NCBI GenBank assembly: GCA_047615875.1
Contig: JBLHGU010000001.1
Coordinates: 1,647-65,646, forward strand
Length of the DNA stretch: 64,000 nucleotides
From: Parasphingorhabdus sp.
Lineage (GTDB): Bacteria; Pseudomonadota; Gammaproteobacteria; Arenicellales; CAJQKF01
Direction: 5' to 3'
Numbering within the stretch: position 1 is the stretch's first letter; the number at the start of each line of letters is the position of its first letter. The notes below the pieces were generated by a model. That model worked only from the letters and a program-made list of their open reading frames with translations, was not told the DNA's origin and did not search any database. The position numbers and the translations under genes are program-made. Shown here one piece after another: positions 12,727 through 64,000 of this stretch.

Positions 12727-12754
12727 TTTCTTACCCAATACCGTTACTTTTTAC

Positions 12755-13528: not shown

Positions 13529-13584
13529 TTAAATGTTGATTTCAGAAATTATACCTAAGGGAACTTTGCAAAGCCTGGAGTTTT

Positions 13585-14826: not shown

Positions 14827-14879
14827 AGGTGCTCAAGTCTTAGTCGGAGTATTTATTTTCAGGGCATCGTTCTAGCGGA

Positions 14880-15653: not shown

Positions 15654-15754
15654 AGAATAAAACCTTATTAATTAACTAATTTTTCGCTTTAATTTTGCCG
15701 ATAAATCGACCATTTAGAGGTAGAATCGGCGACTTTGTATTCCGTGACAATTTA

Positions 15755-16270: not shown

Positions 16271-16277
16271 GGCAGTC

Positions 16278-17495: not shown

Positions 17496-17587
17496 GCAAC
17501 TGTCGCTCAGATACGGTCAAGATAACTGGCCGCTATCTCGATTCTGCGCCAGAGGCCATCGATTTAATATCCAGTCAGGACCGCTAT

Positions 17588-44065: not shown

Positions 44066-44113
44066 CACCGAGATATTGCTAGACCCCTTGCCGCTGATTG
44101 CCTGGAAATAATT

Positions 44114-49002: not shown

Positions 49003-50460
49003 GTGTTACCAAACTTACCATCCTGTGAATTTACTGGCTCCGAGTTATGCGAACTTGAGGCTCATGTAGTCGTCGATAAGCTGCGTAATGGTGAAATTAG
49101 TAGTGAAGATCTTGTTGCAGCGTCTCTCGCGCGAATCGAAAGCGTTGAGCCTGCTGTAAATGCTATGCCAACGGTGTGTGGCGAACGGGCCTATGAATTT
49201 CTGAAAAAGTGGCGTGCCGATGGTTCCGGGAGTAGTCAGCAAGCGAGTTGGCTGGGTGGGTTGCCCATAGCGATCAAAGATCTCAACGAAGTCGCTGGGG
49301 TTAGAACAACTTACGGCACTCCGGCCCTGGCAGAGAATATTTCTGTGATAAGTGATCCCCTGGTTGAACGCCTGGAAAGTAACGGCGCACTGGTGGTGGG
49401 TAAAACCAATACACCGGAGATGGGCGCGGGTGGAAATACTTTTAACTCAGTTTTTGGTATGACCCGAAACCCCTGGGATACATCTTGCAACGCAGGGGGT
49501 TCATCTGGAGGTGCTGCGGTATCTCTAGCTACGGGCGAGGTTTGGTTAAGTCATGGTTCAGATCTTGCTGGATCGTTACGTACACCTGCAGCTTATTGTG
49601 GTGTAGTTGGTTTTCGACCCAGTCCGGGTAGGGCAGGCGGTGCACCTAAGGATCTTGGTTTCAATATGGAGGCAGTGTCGGGTCCAATGGCGCGTAGCGT
49701 TACTGATTGCGCGCTATTCCTTGATGCCATGTCAGGATTTGATCCGAGATTGCCGCTTTCGTATCCGGCTCCAACTGAACCCTTTCAGCAGGCAGTTCGA
49801 CACGCAACTAGCAATATACGTGTGGCTTACAGTAGCACGTTGGATGGATTTGCTCCGGTTTCACGACAAGTCGATAAGATTCTCCGACAGGCTATGGATA
49901 TGATTTGCGGAGAGGGTGGTGAGGTCGAAGAACAATGCCCTGAATTGCCCGATCTTGATCATTCATATCGAGTGTTGCGGGGTATGTTGTGGGCTGCAGG
50001 ACCAGGATTTGCACCGGAAAAGGTTCAGTCTCAATTTAAATATACCCTGATGGATAATATTGATTTCGGTCGTAAGCTAACGATCGAAGATCTATGTAAA
50101 GCGCAACGTGAACGAACAATTTTATTCAGAAATATGCGGCTCTTTCTGGAGAACTTTGACGTATTGGCATGCCCAACGGTTGGATTAATGCCAGGACCTG
50201 TAGAAGAAGAGTTTCCAACCGAGTTGGATGGTGAACCTCTTACGGATTACATAGAGTGGCTGCGTTTCTCCTATCTTTCTACTGCGACCAGTCTGCCTTC
50301 ATTATCTATGCCTGTGGGTTTTTCGTCCGAAGGTTTGCCGGTTGGATTGCAGTTGATCGGGCCGCCCAGAGGCGAGGCCAAATTGTTGGCTGTGGCCCGC
50401 GCCATTGAACTGGCCGTGGGCGGTCCAATCAAACCGATCGATCCAAATATAAACCATTAA
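49003..50460 (+). CDS. Amidase (amidase-signature family)
   Basis: 485 aa. The AS motif GGSSGGAA has the upstream Lys (IAIKDL). GTG start with GAGGAG upstream. Confidence 0.8.
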   Translation: MLPNLPSCEFTGSELCELEAHVVVDKLRNGEISSEDLVAASLARIESVEPAVNAMPTVCGERAYEFLKKWRADGSGSSQQASWLGGLPIAIKDLNEVAGVRTTYGTPALAENISVISDPLVERLESNGALVVGKTNTPEMGAGGNTFNSVFGMTRNPWDTSCNAGGSSGGAAVSLATGEVWLSHGSDLAGSLRTPAAYCGVVGFRPSPGRAGGAPKDLGFNMEAVSGPMARSVTDCALFLDAMSGFDPRLPLSYPAPTEPFQQAVRHATSNIRVAYSSTLDGFAPVSRQVDKILRQAMDMICGEGGEVEEQCPELPDLDHSYRVLRGMLWAAGPGFAPEKVQSQFKYTLMDNIDFGRKLTIEDLCKAQRERTILFRNMRLFLENFDVLACPTVGLMPGPVEEEFPTELDGEPLTDYIEWLRFSYLSTATSLPSLSMPVGFSSEGLPVGLQLIGPPRGEAKLLAVARAIELAVGGPIKPIDPNINH

Positions 50461-50555
50461 CCAGCTGTTTTTACTTAACTTGATTACCCGTAGGATGTGT
50501 ACCACCTGTTCAAGGGTGGGACTTGATAACCGCTTAATTAACACCGAATAACCTT

Positions 50556-52082
50556 ATGTATACCAGTAATTACTTAGCCAGCAAGCTTCGTTTGGCAACC
50601 CTTGATCGACCTGATGCTGTTTTTGCCCGAATCCATGAGACTGGCGAGATAATCTCCTATGCAGATTTCTTTGAAGCTTCCGAGCGTCTGGCGTCAGCGA
50701 TGGTCTCTGCTGGAGTGAAGCCCGGTGATCGGGTTGCTATGCAAGTTAAGAAATCGATCCACGCGTTGCAGCTTTACATGGCCACAATATTGGCTGGTGG
50801 CGTGTTCTTGCCTTTAAACACGGCTTATACCGCTAAAGAAGTTAGCTATTTTCTAGGCGATGCAGAACCGGCACTTTTCGTATGTGATCCAGAGCGCTAT
50901 GAATCTTTAGTTGCAGTCGCACAACAGTGCGGTGTTGCAACCGTATGGACGTTGTCTGGAAATGGCGAGGGCACCTTAATTGATGCACAGCGTGCCGCAA
51001 ATAGTGGGTTCGAAGCGGTATCGAGACAGGCAGATGATCTTGCAGCGATCCTCTATACCTCGGGCACAACGGGAAGATCCAAAGGCGCGATGTTAAGTCA
51101 TAATGGATTAGCCTCCAATGCAGAGGTGTTGCAGGTTTACTGGGAATTTAACCAGGACGATGTATTGATACATGCACTACCCATTTTTCACACCCATGGT
51201 TTATTTGTCGCCACTAATATTACGATGACGGCCGGTTCAGCCATGATTTTTATGGCGTCTTATAATGCTGAGGCCATTATTGACTATATGCTTTCTGCGA
51301 CAGTGTTAATGGGTGTGCCGACTTTTTATGTGCGATTGCTTGAGCAGGCAGAACTCGCTAATGCGGCTGCGAATATGCGTTTGTTCGTGTCAGGCTCTGC
51401 GCCTTTATTAGCCGAGACCCATCATAGTTGGAGTCGAGTCACAGGCCATGCCATTCTTGAGCGCTATGGTATGACAGAGACCAACATGAATACTTCTAAT
51501 CCTTACCATGGTGAGCGGATTGCCGGTACAGTGGGCTTTCCGTTGCCGGGTGTGGAGGTTGTAATAACTGATCCACAAACTGCTGTAGAACTTTCCCCCG
51601 GTGAGATTGGTATTCTAGAAGTGCGCGGCCCAAACGTGTTTATGGGTTATTGGCGCATGCCAGAGAAAACCGCAGAGGAGCTCAGGTCTAATGGTTTTTT
51701 TATTACCGGAGACTTAGGTTTAATTGATGATAAAGGCTATGTGCAGATTGTGGGTCGTGATAAAGATCTGATTATTTCTGGTGGATATAATATTTATCCG
51801 AAAGAAATTGAATTGCTTATCGATGATTTGCCAGGCGTAAAAGAATCTGCAGTGATTGGTGTGGCGCACCCAGATTTTGGCGAAGCTGTGGTCGCCGTTA
51901 TTGTGCCGGCAGCTGACCAGAAACTTGATGAAGATAATATTGTTCGTGGTTTGCAAGATGATCTGGCTAGATTTAAACAACCCAAGCGTCTATTCTTTGT
52001 GGACGAATTGCCACGCAATGCGATGGGCAAAGTGCAGAAAAATCTTTTAAGAGACAGGTATGCGAGTTTGTTCACGGATTGA
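50556..52082 (+). CDS. Malonyl-CoA-synthetase-like (MatB-like) acyl-CoA synthetase
   Basis: 508 aa. YTSGTTGRSKG P-loop, GYWRMPEKT and GDLGLIDDKGYVQIVGRDKDLIISGGYNIYPKEIE. The N-terminal third is collinear with rhizobial MatB as remembered. Confidence 0.7.
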   Translation: MYTSNYLASKLRLATLDRPDAVFARIHETGEIISYADFFEASERLASAMVSAGVKPGDRVAMQVKKSIHALQLYMATILAGGVFLPLNTAYTAKEVSYFLGDAEPALFVCDPERYESLVAVAQQCGVATVWTLSGNGEGTLIDAQRAANSGFEAVSRQADDLAAILYTSGTTGRSKGAMLSHNGLASNAEVLQVYWEFNQDDVLIHALPIFHTHGLFVATNITMTAGSAMIFMASYNAEAIIDYMLSATVLMGVPTFYVRLLEQAELANAAANMRLFVSGSAPLLAETHHSWSRVTGHAILERYGMTETNMNTSNPYHGERIAGTVGFPLPGVEVVITDPQTAVELSPGEIGILEVRGPNVFMGYWRMPEKTAEELRSNGFFITGDLGLIDDKGYVQIVGRDKDLIISGGYNIYPKEIELLIDDLPGVKESAVIGVAHPDFGEAVVAVIVPAADQKLDEDNIVRGLQDDLARFKQPKRLFFVDELPRNAMGKVQKNLLRDRYASLFTD

Positions 52083-52141: not shown

Positions 52142-52373
52142 AGGTTTCAATCTTCCCGCACACCCTTTCGTGAGCTGGTAAAGCGGGTGGGGTTTTTTCG
52201 TGCTCGTCATTCCGTGTTTAGCCATATTGAATAAGTCGGCTCACGAGCATATTGATATCGTTAATGCGATACTGGATTCAGATGATCCAAAGGCAAGGGG
52301 TTTGACTTATCATCATGTGGTAGTGAGTGCCGAGGAGCTGCTCGATATCGCGAATATCCTGTCCAGTCGATAG
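52142..52373 (+). pseudogene. Possible remnant of a GntR/FCD-family regulator (C-terminal domain only, frame-broken)
   Basis: The frame ending at TAG 52371 reads ...NKSAHEHIDIVNAILDSDDPKARGLTYHHVVVSAEELLDIANIL, resembling the last FCD helices (eH..I..Ai..gD...A...m..H). An adjacent frame gives PFRELVKRVGFFRARHSVFSHIE. No wHTH is present. Confidence 0.35.
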
Positions 52374-52455
52374 TTTCTGTAAAGCCGTTTGGGATGGTTG
52401 TCTTTTCTCTGCATACTGGATACAGTATGCAGAGAAAGATATTTAGGAGAACAAA

Positions 52456-53592
52456 ATGTCAACCGAGGCAATTGTAGTCGGTGCCGGCATAGCAGGTTCC
52501 ATGACTGCATTGGCGTTGCAGCGTCGAGGGGTCAGCACGACTTTAATAGATCGCTGGGAGCCAGGTCATTCCAGAGCGTCATCCACTGACTATAATCGTA
52601 TGATTAGAGCCATTCATGGCCACGATGAGTTCTATACTCTGTGGGCCAGGGAAGCTCGTGAGCGTTGGTTGGAACTACAGGCAGAGACTGGCCAGCGTCT
52701 GTATTACGAATGTGGTGCTTTGATTCTGGCGACCGAAGGACACTGTCATTGGGAAGATGCCACCGAAAAGACATTTCAGAAATTGGGTGTGCCACATCAT
52801 AAGTTCGGGCGAGATGAAATTTCCCTGCGTTTTCCACAATTCAAATGTGACGATATCTCCTACGCTTTGTACGAGCCAGAGGCGGGCATGATTATGGCCC
52901 ACCGAGCGGTAATCACCACCGTAGATTTATTTAAGCGCGAAGGTGGGGTGGTCAAGCGTGGCCGCGTTACCACCGACAATCAAGAACGATTGCATCTCGA
53001 TGGAAAAGCATTAAACGCTGACTTTATGGTTGTTTGTACCGGTCCGTGGATGTCTGATATGTTTCCCAAAACCATCAAACCTATTGGCAATATTGTTGGT
53101 GTGAACGTACTTTATACCTCTACGCCCGATGGTAGTGAAGCTTTCGATCGGACACAAATGCCCTGTTGGATTGATCATGGTCAGGGTTCATTCGGCATGC
53201 CTTCAGTAGAAGGCTGTGGCGTAAAGGCGGCAGTGGTTTTTCCAGATAAGATTGATATTGATCAGGATGAACGGTTAGTGCGCCGCGAGACACTTTCACG
53301 AACGCGCCGGTATATCCAGAAACGCTTGCCGGGATTAGTTGGCGAGCGCGTGGTGGATTCAAAATTCAATCAGATAATATTGACCCCTGATACCCACTTT
53401 ATCGTTGACTGGCACCCCGAGCAGAAAAATGTACTGATAGCCGGTGGTTGCTCTGGTCATTTGTTTAAGCACGGCCCAGTATTTGGTGATTTCGCCGCTG
53501 GGGTGGCCTGTCGAGAATATGGTACGGCGGCGCATTTTAAATTGGCTGGGCGCAGAAAACTCTCTGCCAAGGAAAGTCCATCCGGGCGTTAG
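52456..53592 (+). CDS. FAD-dependent amine oxidase, monomeric sarcosine oxidase / N-methyltryptophan oxidase-like
   Basis: 378 aa. AIVVGAGIAGSMTA dinucleotide fold, GHSRASSTDYNRMIR, and the C-terminal AGGCSGHLFKHGPVFG paralleling MSOX GFSGHGFKF. Confidence 0.7.
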   Translation: MSTEAIVVGAGIAGSMTALALQRRGVSTTLIDRWEPGHSRASSTDYNRMIRAIHGHDEFYTLWAREARERWLELQAETGQRLYYECGALILATEGHCHWEDATEKTFQKLGVPHHKFGRDEISLRFPQFKCDDISYALYEPEAGMIMAHRAVITTVDLFKREGGVVKRGRVTTDNQERLHLDGKALNADFMVVCTGPWMSDMFPKTIKPIGNIVGVNVLYTSTPDGSEAFDRTQMPCWIDHGQGSFGMPSVEGCGVKAAVVFPDKIDIDQDERLVRRETLSRTRRYIQKRLPGLVGERVVDSKFNQIILTPDTHFIVDWHPEQKNVLIAGGCSGHLFKHGPVFGDFAAGVACREYGTAAHFKLAGRRKLSAKESPSGR

Positions 53593-53694
53593 AGGGTTGT
53601 CGACAGAAAATAATTCCGTTAGTATTTTGGATACAAAATCCAGAATACAACGTTCAGTTCAAACACTAAACAAACTTAAGAGAGGATTGGAGAA

Positions 53695-54990
53695 GTGACC
53701 AGCAATGTAGAAATGTTGCCAGAAGGCACACATACCGTCGTTCTTGGTGTGGGCGATGCTAACGGCATCATGCGCGGCAAGCGTATCCCTGCCAGTCATT
53801 GGCCAACAATCTGCAAAAATGGCAATGCGCTATCGCTCGCAACGCTTGCTATCGATATGACCTGTGACGTCTGGGATACGCCCTATGTCAATTTCGATAA
53901 TGGCTATCCAGACATGCATATGTTTCCCATAGCTCCGCCAATAGCCTCTCCCTGGGAGTCCGGCGTGGCAATCTGTATGGGCTATGCAGAGGGCATGGAT
54001 CATAAACCGGTACCAATTGATCCCCGTGGTGCGTTGATTGCTCAGTTGGAAAGAGCCGCGCAAATGGGCTATGACATTAATGTCGGTACCGAGTTAGAGT
54101 TTTATCTGCTAGATCCTGAGACTAAGCGTCCAAGAGATCAGGGTATTCAGGTTTATAGCCTAAGCCGTGCCGCGGAGCTGGAGCATGTTCTTGGCCCCAT
54201 CCGACAACACTTAAACGCTCTTGGCATTCCAATCGAGCAGTCAAATCCGGAATATGCTGCAGGCCAGGTGGAAGTCAATATTCATTACGACGAGCCGTTG
54301 GTGGCAGCAGATCGAGTTGTCCTGTTTCGTGCCATGATCAAGGAACTCGCCATGCATCATGGCTATCTGGCAACTTTCATGTCGAAACCATTTCTGGAAG
54401 AGTCAGGCAGTGGTTTTCATACCCATCATTCATTGTGGAAGAATGGCGTAAACCAGTTCTCCGATAACGGAAAATTTAATGAGCTGGGTAAGTCCTATCT
54501 TGCTGGTTTGCAAAAGCGTATGCCGGAAACAGCATTGGTGAGTGCAACCACGCCAAATGCCTACCGTCGTCGTAAACCCTATACATTTTGTCCGATAAAT
54601 TCTGCCTGGGGACTGGATAACCGTACAGTGGGGTTGCGCGTTATCGAGGGCTCAGATCATGCTGTTCGTGTGGAGAAGCGTGATGGATCTGCCGATTGTA
54701 ATCCTTATTATTTATTGGCATCTGAAATTGCAGCGGGCCTGGATGGTATTGAACAAGGCATGCAGCCCACCGAAATGTGTGCCGGAAATGCTTATGAGTT
54801 TGAGGACGCAGTGCCTTTACCTAACAACATAAATGATGCATTGGTCCTGGCGAAAAATTCTGACTGGCTGAGAGATGTGATCGGCGAAGATCGCCTGACC
54901 ATCCTCATCCAACAGGCAGAGAGGGAAGTTGAATTTCTAGCAGCACCGATTAACCCTGTTGAGCTGGAACGCTATCTGGGTAATTTCTGA
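53695..54990 (+). CDS. Glutamine synthetase family protein (gamma-glutamyl-amine ligase-like; PuuA/GlnT/IpuC-type)
   Basis: 431 aa, GTG start after GAGGATTGGAGAA. Catalytic-domain motifs are GTELEFYL, NPEYAAGQVEVN, MSKPF...SGSGFHTHHSL and NAYRRR. Confidence 0.8.
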   Translation: MTSNVEMLPEGTHTVVLGVGDANGIMRGKRIPASHWPTICKNGNALSLATLAIDMTCDVWDTPYVNFDNGYPDMHMFPIAPPIASPWESGVAICMGYAEGMDHKPVPIDPRGALIAQLERAAQMGYDINVGTELEFYLLDPETKRPRDQGIQVYSLSRAAELEHVLGPIRQHLNALGIPIEQSNPEYAAGQVEVNIHYDEPLVAADRVVLFRAMIKELAMHHGYLATFMSKPFLEESGSGFHTHHSLWKNGVNQFSDNGKFNELGKSYLAGLQKRMPETALVSATTPNAYRRRKPYTFCPINSAWGLDNRTVGLRVIEGSDHAVRVEKRDGSADCNPYYLLASEIAAGLDGIEQGMQPTEMCAGNAYEFEDAVPLPNNINDALVLAKNSDWLRDVIGEDRLTILIQQAEREVEFLAAPINPVELERYLGNF

Positions 54991-55253
54991 TGCGTATCGG
55001 TCGAGTCACAGGTTCGCTCACTGCCACAATTAAGGAAGCCCAACTGGCGGCTATCCGGCTGCTGGTGGTTGATATTGAGGATGGAACGGGCAATGTAATT
55101 GAGGCCGCTCATGTGGCTGTAGATACGCTCGGTGCCGGCACTGGCGATCTGGTGTTGCTAACCACAGGCTCAGCTGCTCGTATTCCAACAGAATATTCCG
55201 GTCTTTCAGTTGATGCATCAATCGTCGCAATTGTCGACAACATACATATTTAA
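54990..55253 (+). CDS. BMC vertex (pentamer) shell protein, EutN/CcmL/PduN family (BMC-P)
   Basis: 87 aa. MRIGRVTGSLTAT...HVAVDTLGAGTGDLVLLTTGSAAR...DASIVAIVD is collinear with EutN. The ATG overlaps the preceding TGA. Confidence 0.9.
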   Translation: MRIGRVTGSLTATIKEAQLAAIRLLVVDIEDGTGNVIEAAHVAVDTLGAGTGDLVLLTTGSAARIPTEYSGLSVDASIVAIVDNIHI

Positions 55254-55301
55254 TTTACTTAAGTACCAATTAATCAAACCCAATTATTGAGGTAAGTACC
55301 C

Positions 55302-55595
55302 ATGGCAACTAAAGCAGAACTCGGTCAGACAGCACTTGGCATGATTGAAACCCGTGGTGTCGTCGCCGCAATTGAAGCCGCCGATGCAATGGTAAAGGCT
55401 GCAAATGTTCAGATTGTGCGTCAAAGCAAAGCAGGTGGTGGCCTGGTTTCTATTATGATTCGCGGCGAAGTCGGTGCAGTCAAAGCTGCTACTGATGCCG
55501 GTGCCAGCGCAGCCAATAAGGTTGGCGAAGTGGTTGCAGTTCATGTAATCCCTCGTCCGCATGACGAAGTGGAAGCTGTTCTGGCTGAAATCTAA
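55302..55595 (+). CDS. BMC hexamer shell protein, PduA/EutM family (BMC-H)
   Basis: 97 aa. [29 protein letters not shown]...[41 protein letters not shown] is almost motif-for-motif PduA. Confidence 0.95.
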
Positions 55596-55652
55596 AAGCT
55601 GATCCTTGATCATTAACGACGTGAATAATTAAACGTCTCTATCGGGGAAACT

Positions 55653-56849
55653 ATGGATAACGATTTCGAACAATTTACCCGCGCTGTACAGGAAAACAAG
55701 GGCTCTGTCAGAGTCGCTGAAACTGCTCAAAAAATTGATCGGGTATGCGTTCTTGGCGGTGGCCTGGATGGCAGAATACTTGCGGCATTGTGCCTAGCGG
55801 AAAATGCCGCCGTTACTCTGTTTAGTGCCTATGGTGCTGAGTTGAATGACCTGCGCAAACGGGGTGGAATCACCTTGCGAGGTGAGGGCCCTATCGGCAC
55901 GTTTCAGGTTGATCAGGAATCTGTTCCTTCAATTCAGATAACCGCAGAGCTGGATGCTGCGGTGGCAGACGCTGATTTAGTTATTCTGACAGGCCCGGTA
56001 CATAAGCAACGTACTTACGCCATGGTTCTGGCGGACCATCTACGTGACGGGCAAACGCTGCTCATCGCTCCAGGCAGAACTCTGGCGGCTATGGAAACCA
56101 ACTGGTTATTGCGGGTTGGTGGTTGCCAGGCGAATATTTCGGTGGTTGAAATGTCTGGGCTGCCTTATTGGGTACATAGCCGCGACGGTCACTTTGATTT
56201 ATGCAAGGCCAGTGGGGTTAGTGCGGCGTGTTTGCCATCAGGACAGCCTGCACTGCAATCCGCCCTACAAAAACTGTTGCCAGGTACAACTGGAACGCTA
56301 TCGACATTATCCAGCAGTTTTTCCGATGCAAGTGGTGCCGTCGAAAGCGTCGCGTTATTACTGGGTGGTTCACTGGTAGCTCAGCCTGCTAAGTCAATTC
56401 CTAATGGTGCTGTACCTCTGCAGGAGAATGCCACCTTTCATAGTTTGTTAGAAAGTGAATCGAGTCGTAATTTGGTTGCTCAATTATTGTCCGAACGTCG
56501 CAAGGTTGCGCGGAAGTTTGGCGTGCGTGGATTGCCTGACGATGAGCAATGGACTGATATGGCTGCGGGAAGCAAGAAGGGCAGTGGTAGCCGGCCAATA
56601 CCGAATACAGAACATGCCAGAGGCATGTTGCGCTGTGCCGTAACAGGTTCTCTGGTACCACTTCAGTCTGCTGGTGAGATGACTGGTACGCCCACACCTT
56701 CTACAGATGCCATGATTAATTTAGCCAGTGCCGCCCTGGGTCATGATTTAGCCAGTGCGGGTCGTCGCTTAAATTCTATGGGTATTAGCCCGGGTAGTTC
56801 CGATGAGGTTAGAAAGCAGGTTGAAGCCATGATAAAAGGGGAAGCATAG
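55653..56849 (+). CDS. NAD(P)-binding Rossmann protein, opine (octopine/nopaline) dehydrogenase-like, with about 30-aa N-terminal extension
   Basis: 398 aa. VCVLGGGLDGRILA (GxGxxG), then LILTGPVHKQ and LIAPGRT as in the opine-DH / glycerol-3-P-DH-N fold. The family call is tentative and was made by eye. Confidence 0.45.
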   Translation: MDNDFEQFTRAVQENKGSVRVAETAQKIDRVCVLGGGLDGRILAALCLAENAAVTLFSAYGAELNDLRKRGGITLRGEGPIGTFQVDQESVPSIQITAELDAAVADADLVILTGPVHKQRTYAMVLADHLRDGQTLLIAPGRTLAAMETNWLLRVGGCQANISVVEMSGLPYWVHSRDGHFDLCKASGVSAACLPSGQPALQSALQKLLPGTTGTLSTLSSSFSDASGAVESVALLLGGSLVAQPAKSIPNGAVPLQENATFHSLLESESSRNLVAQLLSERRKVARKFGVRGLPDDEQWTDMAAGSKKGSGSRPIPNTEHARGMLRCAVTGSLVPLQSAGEMTGTPTPSTDAMINLASAALGHDLASAGRRLNSMGISPGSSDEVRKQVEAMIKGEA

Positions 56850-58228
56850 TGGATAACGACTTACTTTCTATTGCTGCTGCAAGACGTGCTAGCGAGAATG
56901 CCTGGGATGCCTTTCAGAAATTCAGGGTGTTTGACCCGGCTGATATTGATGCCATCGTTGAAGCAATGGCCCGCGCTATTGAACCGGAAGCTCGCCGTCT
57001 GGGTGAAATTGCCGTAGAGGAAACCGGTTACGGTAACGCTGAAGATAAACGACTGAAAAATTTGTTTAATGCGGTCTCTGTCGCAGACTGGTTGCGCGAT
57101 GTTAAAACTCTGGGACTATTGTGGCGCGATGAAATTACCAAAGTGGCGGCTATTGGCGAGCCGATGGGAGTGGTAGCTGCATTAATTCCAGTTACCAATC
57201 CAACTTCAACAATTATTTATAAAGTTCTGTCTGCTGTTAAATCGGGCAATGCCATTGTCTGTGCGCCTCATCCTCGCGGCGTACGTGCCGGCGTAGAAAC
57301 AACCAGGGTTATGGCTCGGGCTGCAGAGCAGCTTGGTGCACCGAAGGGACTTATTCAGTGCCTGGAATCCGTAACCATTCAGGGCACTGCTGAACTAATG
57401 AAGCATCGTCGAACCTCTGTCGTGTTAGCGACCGGCGGGCCCGGCATGGTTAAAGCAGCTTACTCTTCGGGCAAACCTACTCTTGCCGTAGGGGCAGGCA
57501 ATGTACCGTGTTTTGTGCATTCGTCCATGGCATCTGAATTGGCTGAAGTGGCAGAGCAAGTCATTGTTTCCAAATCTTTTGATTATGGAACAGCCTGCGT
57601 TTCAGAACAGGCTGTTATTGTTGAACGAAAACTAAGTCGTGAGTTAAAGGCTGAATTCAAATTACGTGGTGCCTATTTCTGTACGCCGGCTCAATCCGAA
57701 CGACTGGGAAAAGTAATTTTCACCGACAGGAATATGATGAATCCTGACCGTGTTGGGCAATCACCTCAGGTGCTTGCTGATCTGGCAGAAATCCCCTTGC
57801 CACCAGGCGTTCGTGTGCTGGTTTCCGATCAGTCCGAAGTCGGTTGGCAGGCGCCGCTTTCAGCAGAAAAATTGAATCCTGTTTTAGCCTGGTACGAGGT
57901 AGACAATACGGCTAAAGGTATTCAGGTAGCTGAAGACATTGCCCGTTTCGGCGGCTGGGGGCACACAGCAGTACTGCATAGTAACGATGCAGAAGTCACT
58001 GCCGAGTACAGTCGATTACCGGTGGGTCGAATTATTGTTAATACACCAGGTATCCACGGCGGCATGGGTTTTTCTACTGATCTTGAGCCAAGCTTTATGT
58101 TGGGCACCGGTACTTCATCGGGTTCCATTGTTTCCGATAATGTGACCGCACTACATCTTATTAATATTAAACGTGTTGCCTATGAGTCCAGGCCGTGGCG
58201 CGACATCTATCAAGTTTACGGAGAATAG
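56849..58228 (+). CDS. CoA-acylating aldehyde dehydrogenase (EutE/PduP/AdhE-N type)
   Basis: 459 aa. ATGGPGMVKAAYSSGKPTLAVGAGNVP, catalytic Cys in FDYGTACVSEQAVIV, and a length typical of BMC AldDH. The GTG start overlaps the upstream TAG. Confidence 0.85.
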   Translation: MDNDLLSIAAARRASENAWDAFQKFRVFDPADIDAIVEAMARAIEPEARRLGEIAVEETGYGNAEDKRLKNLFNAVSVADWLRDVKTLGLLWRDEITKVAAIGEPMGVVAALIPVTNPTSTIIYKVLSAVKSGNAIVCAPHPRGVRAGVETTRVMARAAEQLGAPKGLIQCLESVTIQGTAELMKHRRTSVVLATGGPGMVKAAYSSGKPTLAVGAGNVPCFVHSSMASELAEVAEQVIVSKSFDYGTACVSEQAVIVERKLSRELKAEFKLRGAYFCTPAQSERLGKVIFTDRNMMNPDRVGQSPQVLADLAEIPLPPGVRVLVSDQSEVGWQAPLSAEKLNPVLAWYEVDNTAKGIQVAEDIARFGGWGHTAVLHSNDAEVTAEYSRLPVGRIIVNTPGIHGGMGFSTDLEPSFMLGTGTSSGSIVSDNVTALHLINIKRVAYESRPWRDIYQVYGE

Positions 58229-58231
58229 GCT

Positions 58232-58861
58232 ATGGCTAGTAAATTAACCATCAGAGCGTTGATGCAAATCGACCGTTTACAGCCAAAGTTTGCGGCCTAC
58301 AACGGTGCCACAGTGCAAGGCTCTATACCATTGGCAGGAGACACCATTCTGATTGGCGAAATTGCCCCTGGCAATGAAGTGTTTAGCTTGATTGACGTGG
58401 CCCTGAAAGCCAGCCGGGTTGAGGCAACCAGTCAGATTGTAGAGCGCGAATTCGGATTTTTTATTTTACGCTCCCCATCAAATGCGGAGGTCAGCGCTGC
58501 CCGCGACGCGATTCTTTCTGAACTTGGCATGTCATTGGAAGATCGTATTAAACCGGTTGTAGAGTCTACTCAGATAATTACTTCCGTTGAGCCCTATCAG
58601 GCACAGTTATTAAACAAGTGGTCAGCTGGAACACTGGTTGTACCTGGTAAAACGCTGGGCATTATAGAGTGTGCACCTGCCGCCTATATTTCCATTGCTG
58701 CAAATGAGGCTGAGAAAGCTGCTGAAATTGATATTGTGCAAGTCAGAGCGGTTGGCCGTTACGGTCGTTTGTTTTTCTCCGGTAGTGAAGACTCAGTGAA
58801 AACGGCCATCGATGCTGCCAGCGAAGCAATAAGAGATGTAACTGGCAAGGCGAGTAGTTAG
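58232..58861 (+). CDS. Tandem-BMC-domain shell protein (BMC-T)
   Basis: 209 aa with two segments of about 95 aa, each with a BMC-like core (..VFSLIDVALKASRVEA.. and ..AYISIAANEAEKAAEIDIV..). The second resembles the EutL-type (permuted) pattern. The topology cannot be settled by eye. Confidence 0.7.
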   Translation: MASKLTIRALMQIDRLQPKFAAYNGATVQGSIPLAGDTILIGEIAPGNEVFSLIDVALKASRVEATSQIVEREFGFFILRSPSNAEVSAARDAILSELGMSLEDRIKPVVESTQIITSVEPYQAQLLNKWSAGTLVVPGKTLGIIECAPAAYISIAANEAEKAAEIDIVQVRAVGRYGRLFFSGSEDSVKTAIDAASEAIRDVTGKASS

Positions 58862-58875
58862 TTCGGGTTACTTAC

Positions 58876-60066
58876 ATGAGCACCAAACGAAGCGTAATCA
58901 CTGACGAACATGTTCACGACGCCTTTCGCAAGGGCAGACAGTTTATAGAGGTGCTGCCGAATACAATTGTTACCGCTCAGGCCAGGGAAACCGCCCAACG
59001 TCTGAAAATAGCCCTGCGTGATGGCCCTTTGGAACAACCGCTAGTCGTAAAAACAGACGGCTCTACGGCTATGCGAAGAGTGCTGTTCCGTCGTCATCCA
59101 GCCTTCGAACCACCACGCCGACAATCTCAACGTGGAGCCGCAAAAATACCCCACCTGGCGCTAGTTGGCGCAGGTGGTGTAGGCATGAATATTGCCCATC
59201 TAGCAGCTAATTGTGAGATGGCCGATAATATTTCCATTATTGACGTCTTGCCAGGAGCAGCCGAAGCAGTTGCGCTTGATTTGCAACACAGCTCTGGCGT
59301 TAGTCGATCAAGCACACATCTGGTTGGTGGCACGGGTCTTGGCCTGGTTGCGGATGCTGATGTAGTTGTCGTTACCGCAGGAAGGCCACGTACACCAGGT
59401 ATGACCAGAGCAGATCTGCTGACCATCAATGGTCGGGTTATAAACAGCGTGGGTGAACAAATTGCCAATCTGGCGCCTAATGCAATTGTTATAGTCGTTA
59501 GCAATCCGCTGGATGAAATGACATTCAAAATGCTCCAGGTCACCGGCTTTCCCCGTGAACGTGTTCTGGGCATGGCAGGCACGCTGGATAGTTCAAGATT
59601 TCGTTTTGCGCTAGCTAAAGCGGCCGGTGTATCGGTAAACGCTGTAGAAGCCATTACGCTTGGTAGTCACGGCGAGGAAATGGTGCCGGTGGCGTCGAAG
59701 GCCACAATAAAGGACAGAAGCCTGGATGTATTTCTGAGTTCACAGCAAATCGAACAGTGCCGAATGGAAACCATTGGTGGAGGCGCCGCAGTCGTTGGTT
59801 TGAAAAAAACCGGTTCCGCTACGCTTGCTCCGGCCCAGGCGACAGTTGAGTTGCTTGATCATATTCGTGGTGCCCGCGCCGGTTCTGTACCTGTTTCCGT
59901 GTTGCTTAAAGGAGAGTATGGCATCCACGATACCGTGGTTGGAGTGCCGTGCAAGCTGGGTCGTTCCGGTGTAGTTGAAATTGTTGAGCTGAGTCTCGCT
60001 GAAAAAGAAATTGCCGAATTAAAGGCAGCCGCTAAAGCGGTCAAGTCTCGCCTGGAAAGTAGCTAA
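58876..60066 (+). CDS. LDH/MDH-family 2-hydroxyacid dehydrogenase (MDH-like Arg at the specificity position) with about 89-aa N-terminal extension
   Basis: The core starts at about aa 90: LALVGAGGVGMNIA, TAGRPRTPGMTRADLL, VVSNPLD, LDSSRFR, GSHGEEMVP. The N-terminal SVITDEHVHDAFRKGRQFIEVLPNTIVTAQARETAQRLKIAL resembles the EutQ N-terminus. Confidence 0.8.
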   Translation: MSTKRSVITDEHVHDAFRKGRQFIEVLPNTIVTAQARETAQRLKIALRDGPLEQPLVVKTDGSTAMRRVLFRRHPAFEPPRRQSQRGAAKIPHLALVGAGGVGMNIAHLAANCEMADNISIIDVLPGAAEAVALDLQHSSGVSRSSTHLVGGTGLGLVADADVVVVTAGRPRTPGMTRADLLTINGRVINSVGEQIANLAPNAIVIVVSNPLDEMTFKMLQVTGFPRERVLGMAGTLDSSRFRFALAKAAGVSVNAVEAITLGSHGEEMVPVASKATIKDRSLDVFLSSQQIEQCRMETIGGGAAVVGLKKTGSATLAPAQATVELLDHIRGARAGSVPVSVLLKGEYGIHDTVVGVPCKLGRSGVVEIVELSLAEKEIAELKAAAKAVKSRLESS

Positions 60067-60482
60067 TGAGCGTGGCAAGTGTCGCAACCGGTGGCAGGTT
60101 TGAAACTATTGGCGCTTACAGCCGTGCAAAGCGAGTAGGTCCCTTCGTTTTTGTTGCCGGCACAACCGCTATTGAGCCCAATGGTCGACTACATGCCCCC
60201 GGCGATACCTATGCCCAAAGTAAATATATTTTTCAACGGATAGAAAGTGCACTTAACGAGCTAGGTGCTGAATTACGTCATGTGGTAAGAACACGAGCCT
60301 TTTTAACCGATATGAAAAGCGGCGGCGGTGATTTTGTTCGTGCTCATGGTGAAGTATTTGCTGGCATCAACCCGGTTACCAGTGGTGTTGAAGCTGGACT
60401 GACAACTGAAGGCATGATGATTGAAATTGAAGTGGATGCCTTGATTCATGATAAGGATGGGCATATCGACTATTCACTATAA
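60066..60482 (+). CDS. RidA/YjgF/Rid family (enamine/imine deaminase fold) protein
   Basis: 138 aa. FVFVAGTTAIEPNG...YAQSKYIFQRIESALNELGAELRHVVRTRAFLTD...IEIEVDA. The ATG overlaps the upstream TAA. Confidence 0.75.
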   Translation: MSVASVATGGRFETIGAYSRAKRVGPFVFVAGTTAIEPNGRLHAPGDTYAQSKYIFQRIESALNELGAELRHVVRTRAFLTDMKSGGGDFVRAHGEVFAGINPVTSGVEAGLTTEGMMIEIEVDALIHDKDGHIDYSL

Positions 60483-60554: not shown

Positions 60555-61865
60555 ATGAAACATGCAAATAGATTGCGCAAAACAGCAATCGCCTCTGCCC
60601 TGGCAATGGGTCTAGGATTGTTAGCGCCTGCCCAGGCTGCCGACGAAGTGGTAGTGGGCTACATTGGATCATTCGCTTCTGATAGCGGGCTGAGCACCAT
60701 TCGCGGTGCTGAAATCGCCATTGAGGAATTGAATGAAAAAGGTGGGTTGAACGGCAAACAAATCAGAATGGTCATGGCCGATACGCGAGAAGATGTTGCG
60801 GAAGGTATTAGGGCTTACGAATATTTGAACGACGTTGAAAAGGTCGATTTCATTATCTCTGGCAGCATCGATGATGTCTCCCTTGGCTGGTTGCCACGTA
60901 TGGTTGAGTATCGAACACCTACACTGGATACATGGACTTCCTATATCGGCATAATCGATAAGGTTGTTGAGGATTACGAAAACTACAAAATGTATTTTAT
61001 GAATGTTGCTAGTGATGAAGCATTGGCGACCCTGTATGTTGACTTCGGTAAAGATGTACTAGCTAAAGAAATGGGCTACAAAACCACCGTTATCATGCAC
61101 GAAGATACCGCTTTTGGTGGTGCGATAGCTGGTCTGGTCGAAGCCCTGCTTGCGCCGGATGCGGGAATAGAGATTGTCGATAAGATTATCTATGACCCCA
61201 ACACGGTAGACTTTGCTCCCTTGTTTAATAAGGCTGTGGCTACCGGTGCAGATTTTATTTATATAGTTTCTTCTGTGAAAAGCCAGGTGCCGGCATCTCA
61301 GTATGTAAAACTGCAGGTGCCAATGCCTATGACCGGGGTTAATGTCGCGGCATTCGGCCAGGACTTCTGGAATGATACCGGTGGCCTGGGTGGTGGTACT
61401 TCCACGTTAAGTCCGATTCCTTCAGTAGGTTTCGATATGGACGATCGGTCAGCAGCGTTCCTCGAGAAATACAAGGCCAAGCATGGTGATAACCGTCCCA
61501 TCGTTCCCCACTTTAACGGTTTTAACGCTTATTACGGTATCTATGGTGCCTTCGCTGCAGCAGAACGTGCCGGTGGTTTCGCGCCGTTAGATGACTGGGT
61601 ACGCGAGATGGAAAATGAAGACCTGAAGATTTACAAAGATGGTGAGCTTTGGCTTCGATATGGTTTCTGGAAGCCCGGCGAGATTGAGCCTCGTACCAAT
61701 CGCGAGTATACCCATAATATTAAGTTTGATATTACCGCGCCATTTGATGATGGTGCACCGGCCATGGTCGTTCTGCAGTGGTATGAAGATGGCACAACGG
61801 CTGTTGTTTATCCGCCCAAATATGCCACTGGCAAATTTGAGGAACCTTCCTGGATTAAGAAATAG
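60555..61865 (+). CDS. ABC transporter periplasmic substrate-binding protein (Liv/branched-chain amino acid-amide type)
   Basis: 436 aa with a signal peptide (ASALAMGLGLLAPAQA) and a type-I PBP pattern (VVVGYIGSFASDSG...AEIAIEELNEKGGLNGKQI). Confidence 0.75.
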   Translation: MKHANRLRKTAIASALAMGLGLLAPAQAADEVVVGYIGSFASDSGLSTIRGAEIAIEELNEKGGLNGKQIRMVMADTREDVAEGIRAYEYLNDVEKVDFIISGSIDDVSLGWLPRMVEYRTPTLDTWTSYIGIIDKVVEDYENYKMYFMNVASDEALATLYVDFGKDVLAKEMGYKTTVIMHEDTAFGGAIAGLVEALLAPDAGIEIVDKIIYDPNTVDFAPLFNKAVATGADFIYIVSSVKSQVPASQYVKLQVPMPMTGVNVAAFGQDFWNDTGGLGGGTSTLSPIPSVGFDMDDRSAAFLEKYKAKHGDNRPIVPHFNGFNAYYGIYGAFAAAERAGGFAPLDDWVREMENEDLKIYKDGELWLRYGFWKPGEIEPRTNREYTHNIKFDITAPFDDGAPAMVVLQWYEDGTTAVVYPPKYATGKFEEPSWIKK

Positions 61866-61931: not shown

Positions 61932-62783
61932 ATGGCACACATACTGATACAGGGGCTGTTGTTAAGCGGTTTATACGCTTTACTGGCAGTAGGTTTTACC
62001 ATGATCTTTAGTGTGGGTCGTGTGCTGAACCTGGCTTACGGTGTTTACATCATGCTGGGCGGCTATGTTTATTATCATGCTGCTCAGGTTTTGGGCATCC
62101 CAAAATTGGCAAGTTTTGTAATAGCAATAATGGCGGGCGCTGTATTTGGCATGCTGATATATCAGCTACTAGTCAAGCGCTTAAAGGGTGACTCGGTCGC
62201 CATCGAAATATCTACCTTGATACTCGCCGTAGTTATGCAGGCGCTAATCATACTAATTTACTCTCCTTCACCGAAAAGTATGTGGCCGCTAATACCGGGC
62301 GTGCTGCGTTTTGAAGGAGTCAGTGTTACCTATAATATTGTTATAGCCGCGATTACCAGCTGGGTCGTATTGGGCGGATTGCTGTTATTTATTAGCAAGA
62401 CACATATCGGTCGTGCAATAAGAGCCGTATCGATGGACCCCAAGGGTGCATTAATTTCAGGTATAAGTACCAATCAGGTTAATTTGGTTACCTGGGCCAT
62501 TTCCGGCGGTCTTGGTGCGTTGGCAGGTGTATTTCTTGCCACCTATACTCAGCTTGATCCTGGCATGTGGGTCGGACCCTTAATCATTGCTGTAGCCGTA
62601 GTGATAGTTGGTGGTATTGGCAGCATTGCTGGCAGTATGGTTGCTGCCCATATTATTGGTATGCTGGAAACTATTACCACGACTATGATTGCTGCAGAGT
62701 TACGTGGTGTCACCACTATGTTGCTCATAATTATCGTACTGGTAGTCGCCCCCAAGGGCCTGTTCGGCAAGGCAGAGTTATGA
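61932..62783 (+). CDS. ABC transporter permease, LivH type
   Basis: 283 aa, multi-TM, with an N-terminus and G-rich helices typical of LivH. Confidence 0.8.
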   Translation: MAHILIQGLLLSGLYALLAVGFTMIFSVGRVLNLAYGVYIMLGGYVYYHAAQVLGIPKLASFVIAIMAGAVFGMLIYQLLVKRLKGDSVAIEISTLILAVVMQALIILIYSPSPKSMWPLIPGVLRFEGVSVTYNIVIAAITSWVVLGGLLLFISKTHIGRAIRAVSMDPKGALISGISTNQVNLVTWAISGGLGALAGVFLATYTQLDPGMWVGPLIIAVAVVIVGGIGSIAGSMVAAHIIGMLETITTTMIAAELRGVTTMLLIIIVLVVAPKGLFGKAEL

Positions 62784-63751
62784 GTTGTTGGCGCACCGCT
62801 ACCGGTAAGGCTTTGATGGGCTGGGGTGCTTTTGCTCTGCTTATGTTGTTGCTACCCACTGTCGCCAGTACGGGAACATTGCGGGTTTTTATTTTCGCCC
62901 ATTTCCTCGCCATGTTCGCTATAAGCTGGGACATTATGTCTGGCAAAACCGGTTATATTAGTTTTGGTCATCCTTTTTTAATTGGCATTGGTGGCTATAC
63001 CACCGCAATGCTGACCTATCATCTGGACTGGCCGATAGCGATCACGATTCCAATTGCAGTGCTGGCTACCATGATTGCCGGTACGTTGTTTTTTCTACCA
63101 GCGCTACGCACCCGTGGAACCTATTTCGCTTTGGTTACACTGGCCTTTATGGAGCTTATGTATGGTTTGGTTCAGGTCATTGCTCCAAAGGTGACAGGTG
63201 GCACAAGAGGCCTTTCCGGTATTCCAAGTATCGTCACTGGTGCCTTACCCAACTATTATTTATCACTGGTTGTTTTGTTGATCCTGGCCTTCGGGTTATG
63301 GTTGTTAATTCGTACAAGACTGGGTACCGCATTGAGCGCCATCAGTATGGATGAAGATGCCATGCGCGCCAGTGGGCTGGATACAACTCGACTAAAATTG
63401 TTCGCCTTCATGGTCAGTGCTTTTGTGGCGGGTTTGGCTGGTGCGCTCTATATACATTACCTCGGCTCCATAGCACCCCGTAGTTTATTTGATATCAATT
63501 TTCTATTCACTATTTTGGTCGCCAGTTTACTAGGTGGTGCTGGAACTATTATCGGGCCAATAATCGGCGCCTTTTTCCTGACTTTTTTACTGGAATTTCT
63601 ACGTCCCTATATTCCAGGTACAGAAAGATATCTGATTTATGGTGTAGTAGCTTTGGTGCTCTATGTTTATCAGCCCAAGGGTATTCTGCATATTTTGCAG
63701 ACTTTCTATGCCTGGCTTATGCAACGCAAGGCGGCAGGTCGGTCCGGGTGA
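62780..63751 (+). CDS. ABC transporter permease, LivM type
   Basis: From ATG 62780, overlapping the livH-type stop (ATGA). SFGHPFLIGIGGYT and GTYFALVTLAF motifs. The track ORF start at 62567 is an out-of-gene extension. Confidence 0.8.
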   Translation: MSCWRTATGKALMGWGAFALLMLLLPTVASTGTLRVFIFAHFLAMFAISWDIMSGKTGYISFGHPFLIGIGGYTTAMLTYHLDWPIAITIPIAVLATMIAGTLFFLPALRTRGTYFALVTLAFMELMYGLVQVIAPKVTGGTRGLSGIPSIVTGALPNYYLSLVVLLILAFGLWLLIRTRLGTALSAISMDEDAMRASGLDTTRLKLFAFMVSAFVAGLAGALYIHYLGSIAPRSLFDINFLFTILVASLLGGAGTIIGPIIGAFFLTFLLEFLRPYIPGTERYLIYGVVALVLYVYQPKGILHILQTFYAWLMQRKAAGRSG

Positions 63752-64000
63752 CGGTGCTATTTGAAGCCCGTGATCTGGTCAAATCTTTCGGTGGCCTGTG
63801 TGCGACCAATCATGTGTCGTTGCATGTGAATGAAGGGGAAACGTTGGGTATTATTGGTCCAAATGGCGCAGGGAAAACGACGTTGTTTAACCTCTTCTCG
63901 AACGAAATTACAGCGGATGCCGGTGATGTGATTTTGCAGGGTAAGAGTCTGAAAAATGTTTCTACGGATAGAAGAGTTCGTGCCGGTTTAGTGAGAACCT
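63748..64000 (+). CDS. ABC transporter ATP-binding protein, LivG type (5' part, runs off the right edge)
   Basis: Translation gives VTVLFEARDLVKSFGGLCATNHVSLHVNEGETLGIIGPNGAGKTTLFN (Walker A). The GTG overlaps the upstream TGA. Confidence 0.8.
   Translation, partial: MTVLFEARDLVKSFGGLCATNHVSLHVNEGETLGIIGPNGAGKTTLFNLFSNEITADAGDVILQGKSLKNVSTDRRVRAGLVRT

Follow-up and report, generated by a model that had tools for sequence, protein, structure and literature searches.

A bacterial microcompartment locus with the features of type MIC2, accompanied by apparent paralogues of N-methylglutamate-pathway genes and tentatively linked to amine catabolism

Bacterial microcompartment (BMC) loci of the MIC types are an acknowledged gap in the classification of these organelles, having been catalogued without a signature enzyme, a substrate or a known means of NAD+ and CoA recycling (PMC8217296). 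One of them, MIC2 ('metabolosome with incomplete core'), is represented by 22 loci in the catalogue of Sutter et al. 2021 (Nat Commun 12:3809; PMC8217296, Supplementary Data 2), with hosts among the Acidithiobacillia, Alpha- and Gammaproteobacteria and two Actinobacteria. Its enzyme set as described there includes a glutamine synthetase (GS, pfam00120), an aldehyde dehydrogenase (AldDH) without recognised encapsulation peptide (EP), a lactate/malate dehydrogenase (LDH/MDH, pfam02866) with an N-terminal extension of about 70 residues showing EutQ-like homology, and a protein of the 6PGDH-like superfamily with a short N-terminal helix as possible EP. The catalogue assigns no function to MIC2, a 2024 paper says of MIC2/3 that NAD+ regeneration 'has yet to be determined' (PMC11626177), and our literature searches turned up no function assigned to MIC2 or to an enzyme set of this kind. 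The DNA considered here, 64,000 nucleotides of contig JBLHGU010000001.1 (assembly GCA_047615875.1, filed under Parasphingorhabdus sp.; hereafter the window), carries at 52456-60482 a BMC locus that is almost certainly of type MIC2, and its conserved neighbours suggest, tentatively, that the compartment serves the catabolism of an amine.

The closest AldDH relatives of MIC2 are, per the catalogue, found in RMM1/AAUM and MIC1. MIC1 has in common with MIC2 an LDH/MDH with EutQ-like N-terminal domain and differs in its own Zn-dependent alcohol dehydrogenase (ADH), hydrolase, phosphatase and MreB-like genes. RMM1 processes an amine-derived aldehyde, as would the present locus under the reading given below, and it too lacks a classical alcohol dehydrogenase, but its aldehyde comes from a kinase and a class-III aminotransferase-type phospho-lyase. 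RMM1 and MIC1 are both without GS-like, sarcosine-oxidase-like and opine dehydrogenase (OpDH)-fold proteins. In the metabolosome of Planctomycetes and Verrucomicrobia (PVM; fucose/rhamnose) an LDH/MDH, not an Fe-ADH, is likewise the sole candidate for NAD+ regeneration (PMC4207490); there a class II aldolase acts as signature enzyme and a sugar phosphate as substrate, whereas the LDH/MDH-family enzyme of the window retains Arg102 and resembles a true malate/oxaloacetate enzyme.

Families were assigned by Pfam and NCBIfam profile scans of the open reading frames (ORFs) of the window. The resulting features are, in window coordinates:

52409-52432, no strand assigned: candidate GntR-type operator, site 1, CTGCATACTGGATACAGTATGCAG, an inverted repeat
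52456-53592, plus strand: FAD oxidase of the monomeric sarcosine oxidase/N-methyltryptophan oxidase (MSOX/MTOX) family, 378 aa; DAO domain, E 4e-42
53621-53649, no strand assigned: site 2 of the candidate GntR-type operators, AGTATTTTGGATACAAAATCCAGAATACA, located upstream of the GS-like gene
53695-54990, plus strand: GS-family ligase, 431 aa; Gln-synt_C, E 5e-85 (pfam00120)
54990-55253, plus strand: shell protein BMC-P, forming the pentamer (vertex); full-length EutN_CcmL match, E 3e-23
55302-55595, plus strand: BMC-H hexamer shell protein, EutM/PduA/CsoS1-like; BMC domain, E 4e-28; EutM model, 115 bits
55653-56849, plus strand: OpDH-fold protein with N-terminal helix and linker; weak match to the Octopine_DH C-terminal domain; 1BG6, E 2e-17
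56849-58228, plus strand: CoA-acylating AldDH, 459 aa; Aldedh (pfam00171); EutH_ACDH, 499 bits
58232-58861, plus strand: BMC-Tdp, CcmP/CsoS1D-like double-stacking trimer; CcmP model, 203 bits; CsoS1D_N and BMC domains
58876-60066, plus strand: LDH-like MDH with N-terminal extension of about 90 aa; MDH subfamily model, 313 bits against a cut-off of 283
60066-60482, plus strand: Rid/YjgF/L-PSP-family protein; Ribonuc_L-PSP, E 7e-22
60555-61865, plus strand: periplasmic substrate-binding protein (SBP) of a HAAT (Liv/urea/amide-type) ABC importer; Peripla_BP_6, E 6e-32
61932-62783, plus strand: ABC permease 1; BPD_transp_2; syntenic in relatives
62780-63751, plus strand: ABC permease 2; BPD_transp_2 (gene call of the source contig)
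63748-64000, plus strand: ABC ATPase 1, running past the window end; 55% identity to the ATPase of relatives over 63757-63999

As can be seen, all ORFs of the locus are intact and on the plus strand, at exactly the coordinates given in a preliminary description of this DNA, and the profile matches bear out the families named there: a minimal P/H/T shell with an acylating AldDH, preceded by an FAD amine oxidase (DAO, 52456-53592) and followed by a Liv-type importer (Peripla_BP_6 from 60555). Genes overlap by 1 nt at 54990, 56849 and 60066, and the other junctions measure 3 nt (58229-58231), 14 nt, 48 nt (BMC-P/BMC-H) and 57 nt; the overlaps and the 57-nt gap had been described correctly, whereas the 48-nt gap falls outside the class of 4-15 nt that had been stated for the rest. 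Between oxidase and GS-like gene lies a gap of 102 nt. The scanned ORFs of the 64-kb window included no shell gene besides H, P and T. Some 40 selected longer ORFs outside the locus were scanned, and among these there was no EutBC, PduCDE, glycyl-radical enzyme, PduL/Pta or Fe-ADH, as the preliminary description had held. One caveat concerns a protein with a class II aldolase/adducin domain (PF00596; 12755-13528, minus strand), class II aldolases being the signature enzymes of PVM, GRM5 and ACI BMCs; we rejected it as signature enzyme, as it lies 40 kb away and is unlinked in relatives. A pipecolate-oxidase-like FAD enzyme, a separate housekeeping MDH (47829-48806), an amidase and a malonyl-CoA synthase were similarly considered as parts of the locus and set aside, not being conserved with it. 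Of a complete catabolic BMC core the AldDH is present, and neither the scanned ORFs of the window nor the 10 kb that follow yielded a PduL/Pta or an Fe- or Zn-ADH; hence the name 'incomplete core' for the type.

Each catalogued feature of MIC2 is found in the locus, namely the AldDH, the LDH/MDH with EutQ-like N-terminus, the helix-bearing 6PGDH-like protein, the GS and the H/P/T shell. Furthermore, the genome labelled 'Rhodobacter lobularis' and MIC2 in the trees of the catalogue is that of Candidatus Rhodobacter oscarellae, and its locus (L063) has the same genes in the same order as the window, the proteins being 48-80% identical. It is on this match to the catalogue description together with synteny with one catalogued member that our assignment rests. 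We find no essential difference from the catalogued type; the window departs from it in having the oxidase gene inverted to the operon strand and a three-gene cluster, introduced below, downstream instead of upstream. The statement in the preliminary description that the enzyme set is not a recognised, characterised BMC type thus holds as far as experimental characterisation goes and as far as a function is concerned, but the type had already been defined as MIC2. The MIC2 type itself is therefore known, and no new kind of organelle is added here. What is new is that five further components, none of them mentioned in the catalogue text on MIC2, turn out to be conserved parts of the locus: the MSOX-like oxidase, the ABC importer, the Rid protein, a split-GltB (MgsABC-like) trio and a GntR regulator whose operator is conserved.

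Relatives were obtained by scanning one genome per GTDB species with the OpDH-like protein as query, which returned 140 genomes, the best 80 of which (L001-L080) were taken for comparison. The type is accordingly present in at least 140 species-level genomes, compared with the 22 loci catalogued in 2021. Carriers among the 80 are Alpha- and Gammaproteobacteria, mostly marine, and comprise Rhodobacterales (Ruegeria, Sulfitobacter, Amylibacter), Hyphomicrobiales (Hoeflea, Nitratireductor, Microbaculum) and Geminicoccaceae as well as Arenicellales, Granulosicoccaceae and Halioglobus. The order oxidase, GS, BMC-P, BMC-H, OpDH-like protein, AldDH, BMC-T, MDH, Rid, SBP, two permeases and two ATPases is kept wherever the contig reaches: the oxidase adjoins GS in 75 of the 80 loci, GS is present in 78, Rid directly follows MDH in 67, and the SBP is syntenic in 62 (64-83% identical). 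BMC-H is 73-85% identical in all relatives, and the oxidase, Rid and importer are conserved as strongly as the enzymes listed in the catalogue. In a search for the OpDH-like subfamily among 1.84 billion representative sequences, which gave 46 clusters at a cut-off of E<1e-30, four distant members (30-35% identical) were looked at and all had the same surroundings, a divergent DAO gene and then GS, P, H, OpDH-like protein, AldDH and T. The synteny check suggested in the preliminary description thus came out in favour of a real association, with the same order in 80 genomes and four distant lineages, and the adjacency of shell and enzyme genes is far beyond chance. That it should be fortuitous, or that the shell genes should be relics no longer building a compartment, is highly improbable: all ORFs are intact, the order holds across species-level genomes of two classes and beyond, no context sampled has an OpDH-like protein without neighbouring shell genes, the BMC-specific terminal extensions are conserved, and H, P and T together retain 44-86% identity across relatives. 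The points in favour of such a relic are the 'incomplete' core, with no phosphotransacylase or alcohol dehydrogenase, and the want of an experiment proving that any MIC2 shell assembles.

Beyond the end of the window the source contig (L081, 98 kb, of JGI metagenome 3300053785; its positions 12226-13197 equal window positions 62780-63751) has, on the same strand, ATPase 2 and a GntR/FCD regulator, ATPase 1 and what follows it being the L081 genes at 13194-18481. After the regulator come three genes encoding a class-II glutamine amidotransferase (GATase_6/7), a GXGXG-domain protein and an FMN glutamate-synthase-domain protein. Within the window itself tblastn found no Mgs-like genes. At least 48 of the 80 relatives have the trio within 10 kb of the locus. 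Most Alphaproteobacteria carry it upstream and in divergent orientation, and Arenicellales downstream after GntR, where it is cut by the end of the flank examined; its MgsC-like FMN subunit is 82-91% identical among loci, against 47-56% for the OpDH-like protein. Alignment of the trio and the GS-like protein with the canonical mgsABC-glnT cluster on a Methylobacterium plasmid gave identities of 33, 39, 55 and 31%, the last figure being that of the GS-like protein with canonical GlnT/GmaS, and because these values reach only 31-55% we class the four proteins, on sequence grounds, as paralogues, not orthologues, of N-methylglutamate (NMG)-pathway proteins. A plasmid collection contained zero MIC2 loci and only canonical NMG clusters, at about 54% identity.

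The likeness to the NMG pathway (GmaS, MgsABC, MgdABCD) lies in a GS-family ligase and a split GltB trio encoded together, in a sarcosine-oxidase-family enzyme that follows and acts, in the window presumably, on an N-alkyl amino acid, and in the chemical logic this would entail, from amine via gamma-glutamyl-amide and N-alkylglutamate to aldehyde and glutamate. The two differ in the oxidase, which in the NMG pathway is the heterotetrameric folate-linked MgdABCD (SoxBDAG-like) and in the window a monomeric MSOX-like enzyme that would release free aldehyde, no SoxA-, SoxD- or SoxG-like gene being found in the locus. They differ also in the handling of the aldehyde, for which the NMG pathway has folate or Gfa, and MIC2 a BMC with acylating AldDH.

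The oxidase itself matches MSOX 1EL5 (E 1e-35). It scores 193 bits on the N-methyltryptophan oxidase model, under the cut-off, and stays below both MSOX/MTOX equivalog cut-offs. Arg49, Arg52, Lys265 and Lys348 of MSOX correspond to R48, R51, K257 and K338, which are invariant in 77 homologues, while the flavinylated Cys315 is replaced by Asn305 and His269 is absent. With the carboxylate-binding residues kept, an N-substituted alpha-amino acid fits as substrate, and we propose that the enzyme is an N-alkyl-amino-acid oxidase releasing an aldehyde. The preliminary description had suggested that GS-like ligase and MSOX-like oxidase together generate the aldehyde, and the conserved Mgs-like trio and the MSOX carboxylate site strengthen that suggestion.

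From these homologies we arrive at a reading of the locus as an amine-catabolic metabolosome working via N-alkylglutamate, to which we give slightly less than an even chance, and in which every chemical step, the direction of the MDH and the choice of encapsulated proteins are what we infer. The HAAT-type ABC importer would take up a small nitrogenous substrate, the GS-like ligase would gamma-glutamylate a primary amine at the expense of ATP, and the MgsABC-like trio would convert the gamma-glutamyl-amide into an N-alkyl-L-glutamate. Oxidative dealkylation of the latter by the MSOX-like flavoenzyme would then give glutamate and free aldehyde, the acylating AldDH inside the minimal H/P/Tdp shell would turn the aldehyde into acyl-CoA, and a shell-targeted MDH would reduce oxaloacetate to malate, thereby regenerating NAD+. 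On homology the first choice of amine would be methylamine, common in seawater and expected to yield formaldehyde; the paralogue-level divergence leaves room for other amines. PDB relatives of the SBP are distant Leu/Ile/Val-type binders and uninformative as to its ligand.

The GS-like protein, for which we propose a role as gamma-glutamyl-amine synthetase, scores below the cut-offs of the GS type I, GS type III and gamma-glutamylputrescine synthetase models, and 208 bits on the GmaS model TIGR03105 (cut-off 470). Its best PDB match is 5DM3 (E 6e-61), an unannotated structural-genomics entry from Chromohalobacter salexigens, which may be an ethanolamine gamma-glutamylase. An alternative is a Puu-like gamma-glutamyl pathway, parallel to PuuABCD and to the gamma-glutamyl ethanolamine pathway of Chromohalobacter and Phaeobacter, in which a diamine, polyamine or amino alcohol is gamma-glutamylated and its distal group oxidised, the BMC AldDH acting on the resulting gamma-glutamyl-amino-aldehyde by a further oxidation and a class-I amidotransferase-like hydrolase freeing glutamate. 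We judge this quite unlikely. The GS-like protein does reach 177 bits on the gamma-glutamylputrescine synthetase model, and C. salexigens, the source of its best match, has a gamma-glutamyl ethanolamine pathway (PMC10132767; PMC6529630), 5DM3 being only a candidate for its ethanolamine enzyme. A class-I amidotransferase (GATase1) gene accompanies the locus in 26 relatives, but none is on the contig of the window. The oxidase, moreover, is MSOX/MTOX-like with an alpha-carboxylate site and not PuuB-like, the AldDH is of the CoA-acylating acetaldehyde-dehydrogenase type and not of the PuuC type, and the MgsABC-like trio would be left without a role.

The AldDH has as best PDB match the acetylating acetaldehyde dehydrogenase 5J78 (E 1e-127), with Listeria 3K9D also close, and its catalytic Cys250 is invariant. 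Its proximity to acetylating acetaldehyde dehydrogenases makes a small C1-C3 aldehyde the most likely substrate. In the MDH, the catalytic domains Ldh_1_N and Ldh_1_C begin at residue 94, and residues 6-64 weakly match positions 3-62 of the EutQ model (E 0.003). It aligns with Chloroflexus MDH 1UXH at E 5e-70, and the equivalents of R102, R109, D168, R171 and H195 are invariant in 73 homologues. Since all five catalytic and substrate-binding residues are retained, the enzyme looks like a genuine malate/oxaloacetate enzyme, which fits the earlier idea that it recycles NAD+ in the lumen. We know of no BMC for which NAD+ recycling by MDH and oxaloacetate has been shown.

The second protein to which NAD+ recycling had been ascribed, the OpDH-like one, fares less well. 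It matches the opine dehydrogenase 1BG6 (CENDH) over its full length (E 2e-17), and its AlphaFold 2 model (pLDDT 89.7) has a helix at 4-14, a disordered linker at 15-29 and, in a Foldseek comparison, 1BG6 as first match (TM 0.83), followed by octopine dehydrogenase and then ketopantoate reductases. With CENDH 1BG6 and octopine dehydrogenase 3C7A it has the two-domain fold, the Rossmann motif and the full-length alignment in common; it differs in the extra N-terminal helix and linker. All BMC-linked members have the helix, with its motif (D/E)F...A(L/V), and canonical opine dehydrogenases lack it; in the contexts sampled the subfamily occurs in BMC loci only. Octopine dehydrogenase has a catalytic His212-Asp329 dyad and Arg324 (PMC2924402). 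In canonical members of the family the His-Asp dyad and the Arg are carried by the motifs HPxPxLLN and RYxxED(V/I)P. In CENDH we take these residues to be His202, Arg292 and Asp297, a mapping that combines our alignment with the residues reported by Britton et al. 1998. At the His202 position the window and 80 close relatives have an invariant glutamate (Glu231) and the distant BMC-linked members Y, H, G, V, A, N or L, while the RY..ED motif is absent from the BMC-linked subfamily and HPxPxLLN is not conserved. Because of this loss of the catalytic motifs, which weakens the case for the protein as NAD+ recycler, we regard it, as judged from its sequence, as a BMC-specific cargo with an opine-dehydrogenase fold for which opine-dehydrogenase chemistry is doubtful; binding of NAD(H) is probable, and the protein could lack catalysis or serve to organise the core.

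The same residues bear on a further alternative, the catabolism of opines or other N-carboxyalkyl amino acids. Here an imported imino-diacid, for example strombine, alanopine or tauropine of marine-invertebrate or algal origin, would be cleaved by the OpDH-fold and/or the MSOX-like enzyme into an amino acid and a 2-oxo acid or glyoxylate, with glyoxylate as the 'aldehyde' for the AldDH and the LDH/MDH-family enzyme. In its favour, the protein resembles opine dehydrogenases in fold and along its whole sequence, oxaloacetate and glyoxylate are both accepted by CENDH (PMC6033044), the oxidase keeps its carboxylate-binding residues, the SBP is of the amino-acid/amide (HAAT) type, and the carriers are largely marine and some of them, going by their record titles, host-associated (Candidatus Rhodobacter oscarellae, Hoeflea poritis, a Chromatiales bacterium from Bugula). 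We nevertheless consider this route unlikely, given that the BMC-linked subfamily has not kept the His/Arg/Asp motifs of opine dehydrogenases, that the tightly linked GS-like ligase and MgsABC-like trio would have no role, that the AldDH is nearest to acetaldehyde dehydrogenases, and that Arg102 of the MDH favours oxaloacetate over glyoxylate or pyruvate.

The Rid protein scores 49 bits on the RidA model TIGR00004 (cut-off 106) and has Thr105 in place of Arg105 (E. coli numbering), the position being T, L, S, M or V in all 68 homologues. In RidA, Arg105 is said, after work by Niehaus et al. in 2015, to bind the carboxylate of the substrate. We conclude from these features that the protein is not an archetypal RidA, and the quenching of an imine or enamine, as had been proposed for it, is weakened.

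Returning to the amine-catabolic reading, candidates for targeting to the shell are the helix and linker of the OpDH-like protein, the BMC-specific N-terminal domain of the MDH and an amphipathic C-terminal tail of the AldDH, R448-P-W-R-D-I-Y..Y-G (58190-58228), which is conserved, with RPWRD kept in a distant lineage too; the tail is put forward because the catalogue reports no encapsulation peptide on the MIC2 AldDH. The C-terminus of the oxidase, ESPSGR (53557-53592), is invariant in 77 homologues and different in two distant lineages, and either this end or the RPWRD tail could be a docking or targeting motif not recognised by the catalogue. Taken together, MIC2 might be an amine-oxidising organelle built around a paralogue of the NMG pathway, in which a monomeric oxidase frees the aldehyde, even formaldehyde from methylamine, which is trapped in the shell as acyl- or formyl-CoA, with lumenal NAD+ recycled by a dedicated, oxaloacetate-fed MDH and an EP-bearing OpDH-fold protein that has lost catalysis organising the core or holding NAD(H). 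In this full form we hold the proposal to be doubtful.

Several observations weigh against the amine-catabolic reading. The GS-like protein (GmaS 7CQL, E 3e-33) is no closer to GmaS than to ordinary GS, and about 30 of the 80 relatives have no Mgs-like trio in the flanks examined, many of which end too early to tell. No EP-like extension is seen on the oxidase, GS-like or Rid protein, and with an oxidase lacking such an extension the aldehyde might form outside the shell, at odds with metabolosome logic. The MDH could run in the malate-oxidising direction, no CoA-recycling enzyme was found in the locus, and the OpDH-like and Rid proteins, though universally conserved, have no place in the proposed pathway. 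Finally, our literature searches found no experiment on any MIC2 locus.

A regulatory link between oxidase and shell genes is suggested by their intergenic DNA. In 60 relatives the divergent oxidase and GS genes are separated by a region of about 90 bp with a strongly conserved core, TG.ATACTGTATAC-AGAATACA, in which the palindrome CTGTATACAG fits the operator pattern of the GntR family. The oxidase gene is on the operon strand in the window and divergent in all 75 relatives having it, and the window has two operator copies, one per promoter, as expected after an inversion of the oxidase gene. Site 1, which is related to this core and lies 24 nt upstream of the start codon of the oxidase, consists of 13-bp inverted arms separated by 4 nt, with 0 such repeats expected by chance; site 2 has AGAATACA in common with the consensus of the relatives. 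Both sites carry TGGATACA where the relatives have TGTATACA, and the exact 8-mer TGGATACA is absent from the oxidase/GS intergenic regions of the relatives. We infer that the GntR/FCD protein binds the conserved operator and controls the oxidase gene as well as the operon from GS to the shell genes, and the presence of a copy at each promoter argues for co-regulation of the two. A G+C-rich hairpin followed by a T-run, resembling an intrinsic terminator, lies at 52150-52200 just after the malonyl-CoA synthase gene, and for this reason the oxidase gene probably starts a separate transcription unit. Upstream of GS there is a promoter-like hexamer pair at 53600-53628, such sites not exceeding chance in number; in the promoter and terminator scan, site counts were not above chance, and an Rfam scan of the window returned zero RNA elements.

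With its shell genes tied to a dedicated importer, to an MSOX-like oxidase, to a paralogue of the NMG pathway and to a regulator whose operator can be identified, MIC2 becomes testable. Its MDH is identified, from conserved residues, as a likely true malate/oxaloacetate enzyme, and its OpDH-fold protein is probably no opine dehydrogenase. The spread of the type goes far beyond the 2021 count, mostly in marine Rhodobacterales, Hyphomicrobiales, Arenicellales and Granulosicoccaceae, and there are cultured carriers in which the MIC2 substrate may be sought, among them Ruegeria profundi ZGT108, Hoeflea poritis E7-10, Microbaculum marinum KCTC 52363, Aliishimia ponticola MYP11 and Sulfitobacter aestuariivivens. 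Should the amine hypothesis be true, the system would matter for the turnover of organic nitrogen in the sea, and engineering would gain a minimal shell of three proteins and a new cofactor-recycling module.

Some minor observations concern the relatives and the host. In one Arenicellales locus (L001, 5526-8200) two tandem MSOX-like ORFs precede GS, other Arenicellales loci having one, and a TPR-repeat gene follows the MSOX-like ORF or ORFs in all Arenicellales loci; the copy matching the window is only about 58-61% identical, compared with 70-78% in Alphaproteobacteria. The importer proteins of the window clearly come closest to their counterparts in Arenicellales (Gammaproteobacteria; 71-83%), the GS only marginally so. 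An identical OpDH-like protein carries the NCBI name 'MAG: opine dehydrogenase [Parasphingorhabdus sp.]' (Alphaproteobacteria). The housekeeping MDH of the window we take to be of the PRK05442 type and not of the LDH-like type usual in Alphaproteobacteria. The assignment of the bin to Parasphingorhabdus may be wrong.

Just upstream of the locus (49003-52082) lie the genes for the malonyl-CoA synthase (806 bits, PRK07514 model) and the amidase. The synthase recurs beside the extended locus in L042 and L048 (64% identity) and the amidase directly after the ABC ATPases in L057 (56%), which may hint at an amide or malonate link or may be chance. Elsewhere in the window, a glutamate (methylaspartate) mutase cluster at 22620-27155 encodes a small subunit that binds B12, MutE as the large subunit and a MutL-type protein, with an AMP-dependent ligase after them, and at 43226-44950 a PEP-mutase-family protein stands beside an arylmalonate-decarboxylase-like (Asp/Glu racemase-fold) protein. 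The 274-aa protein encoded at 8740-9564 gives two Ectoine_synth matches and has the look of an ectoine-synthase/cupin fold duplicated in tandem, an unusual arrangement for EctC.

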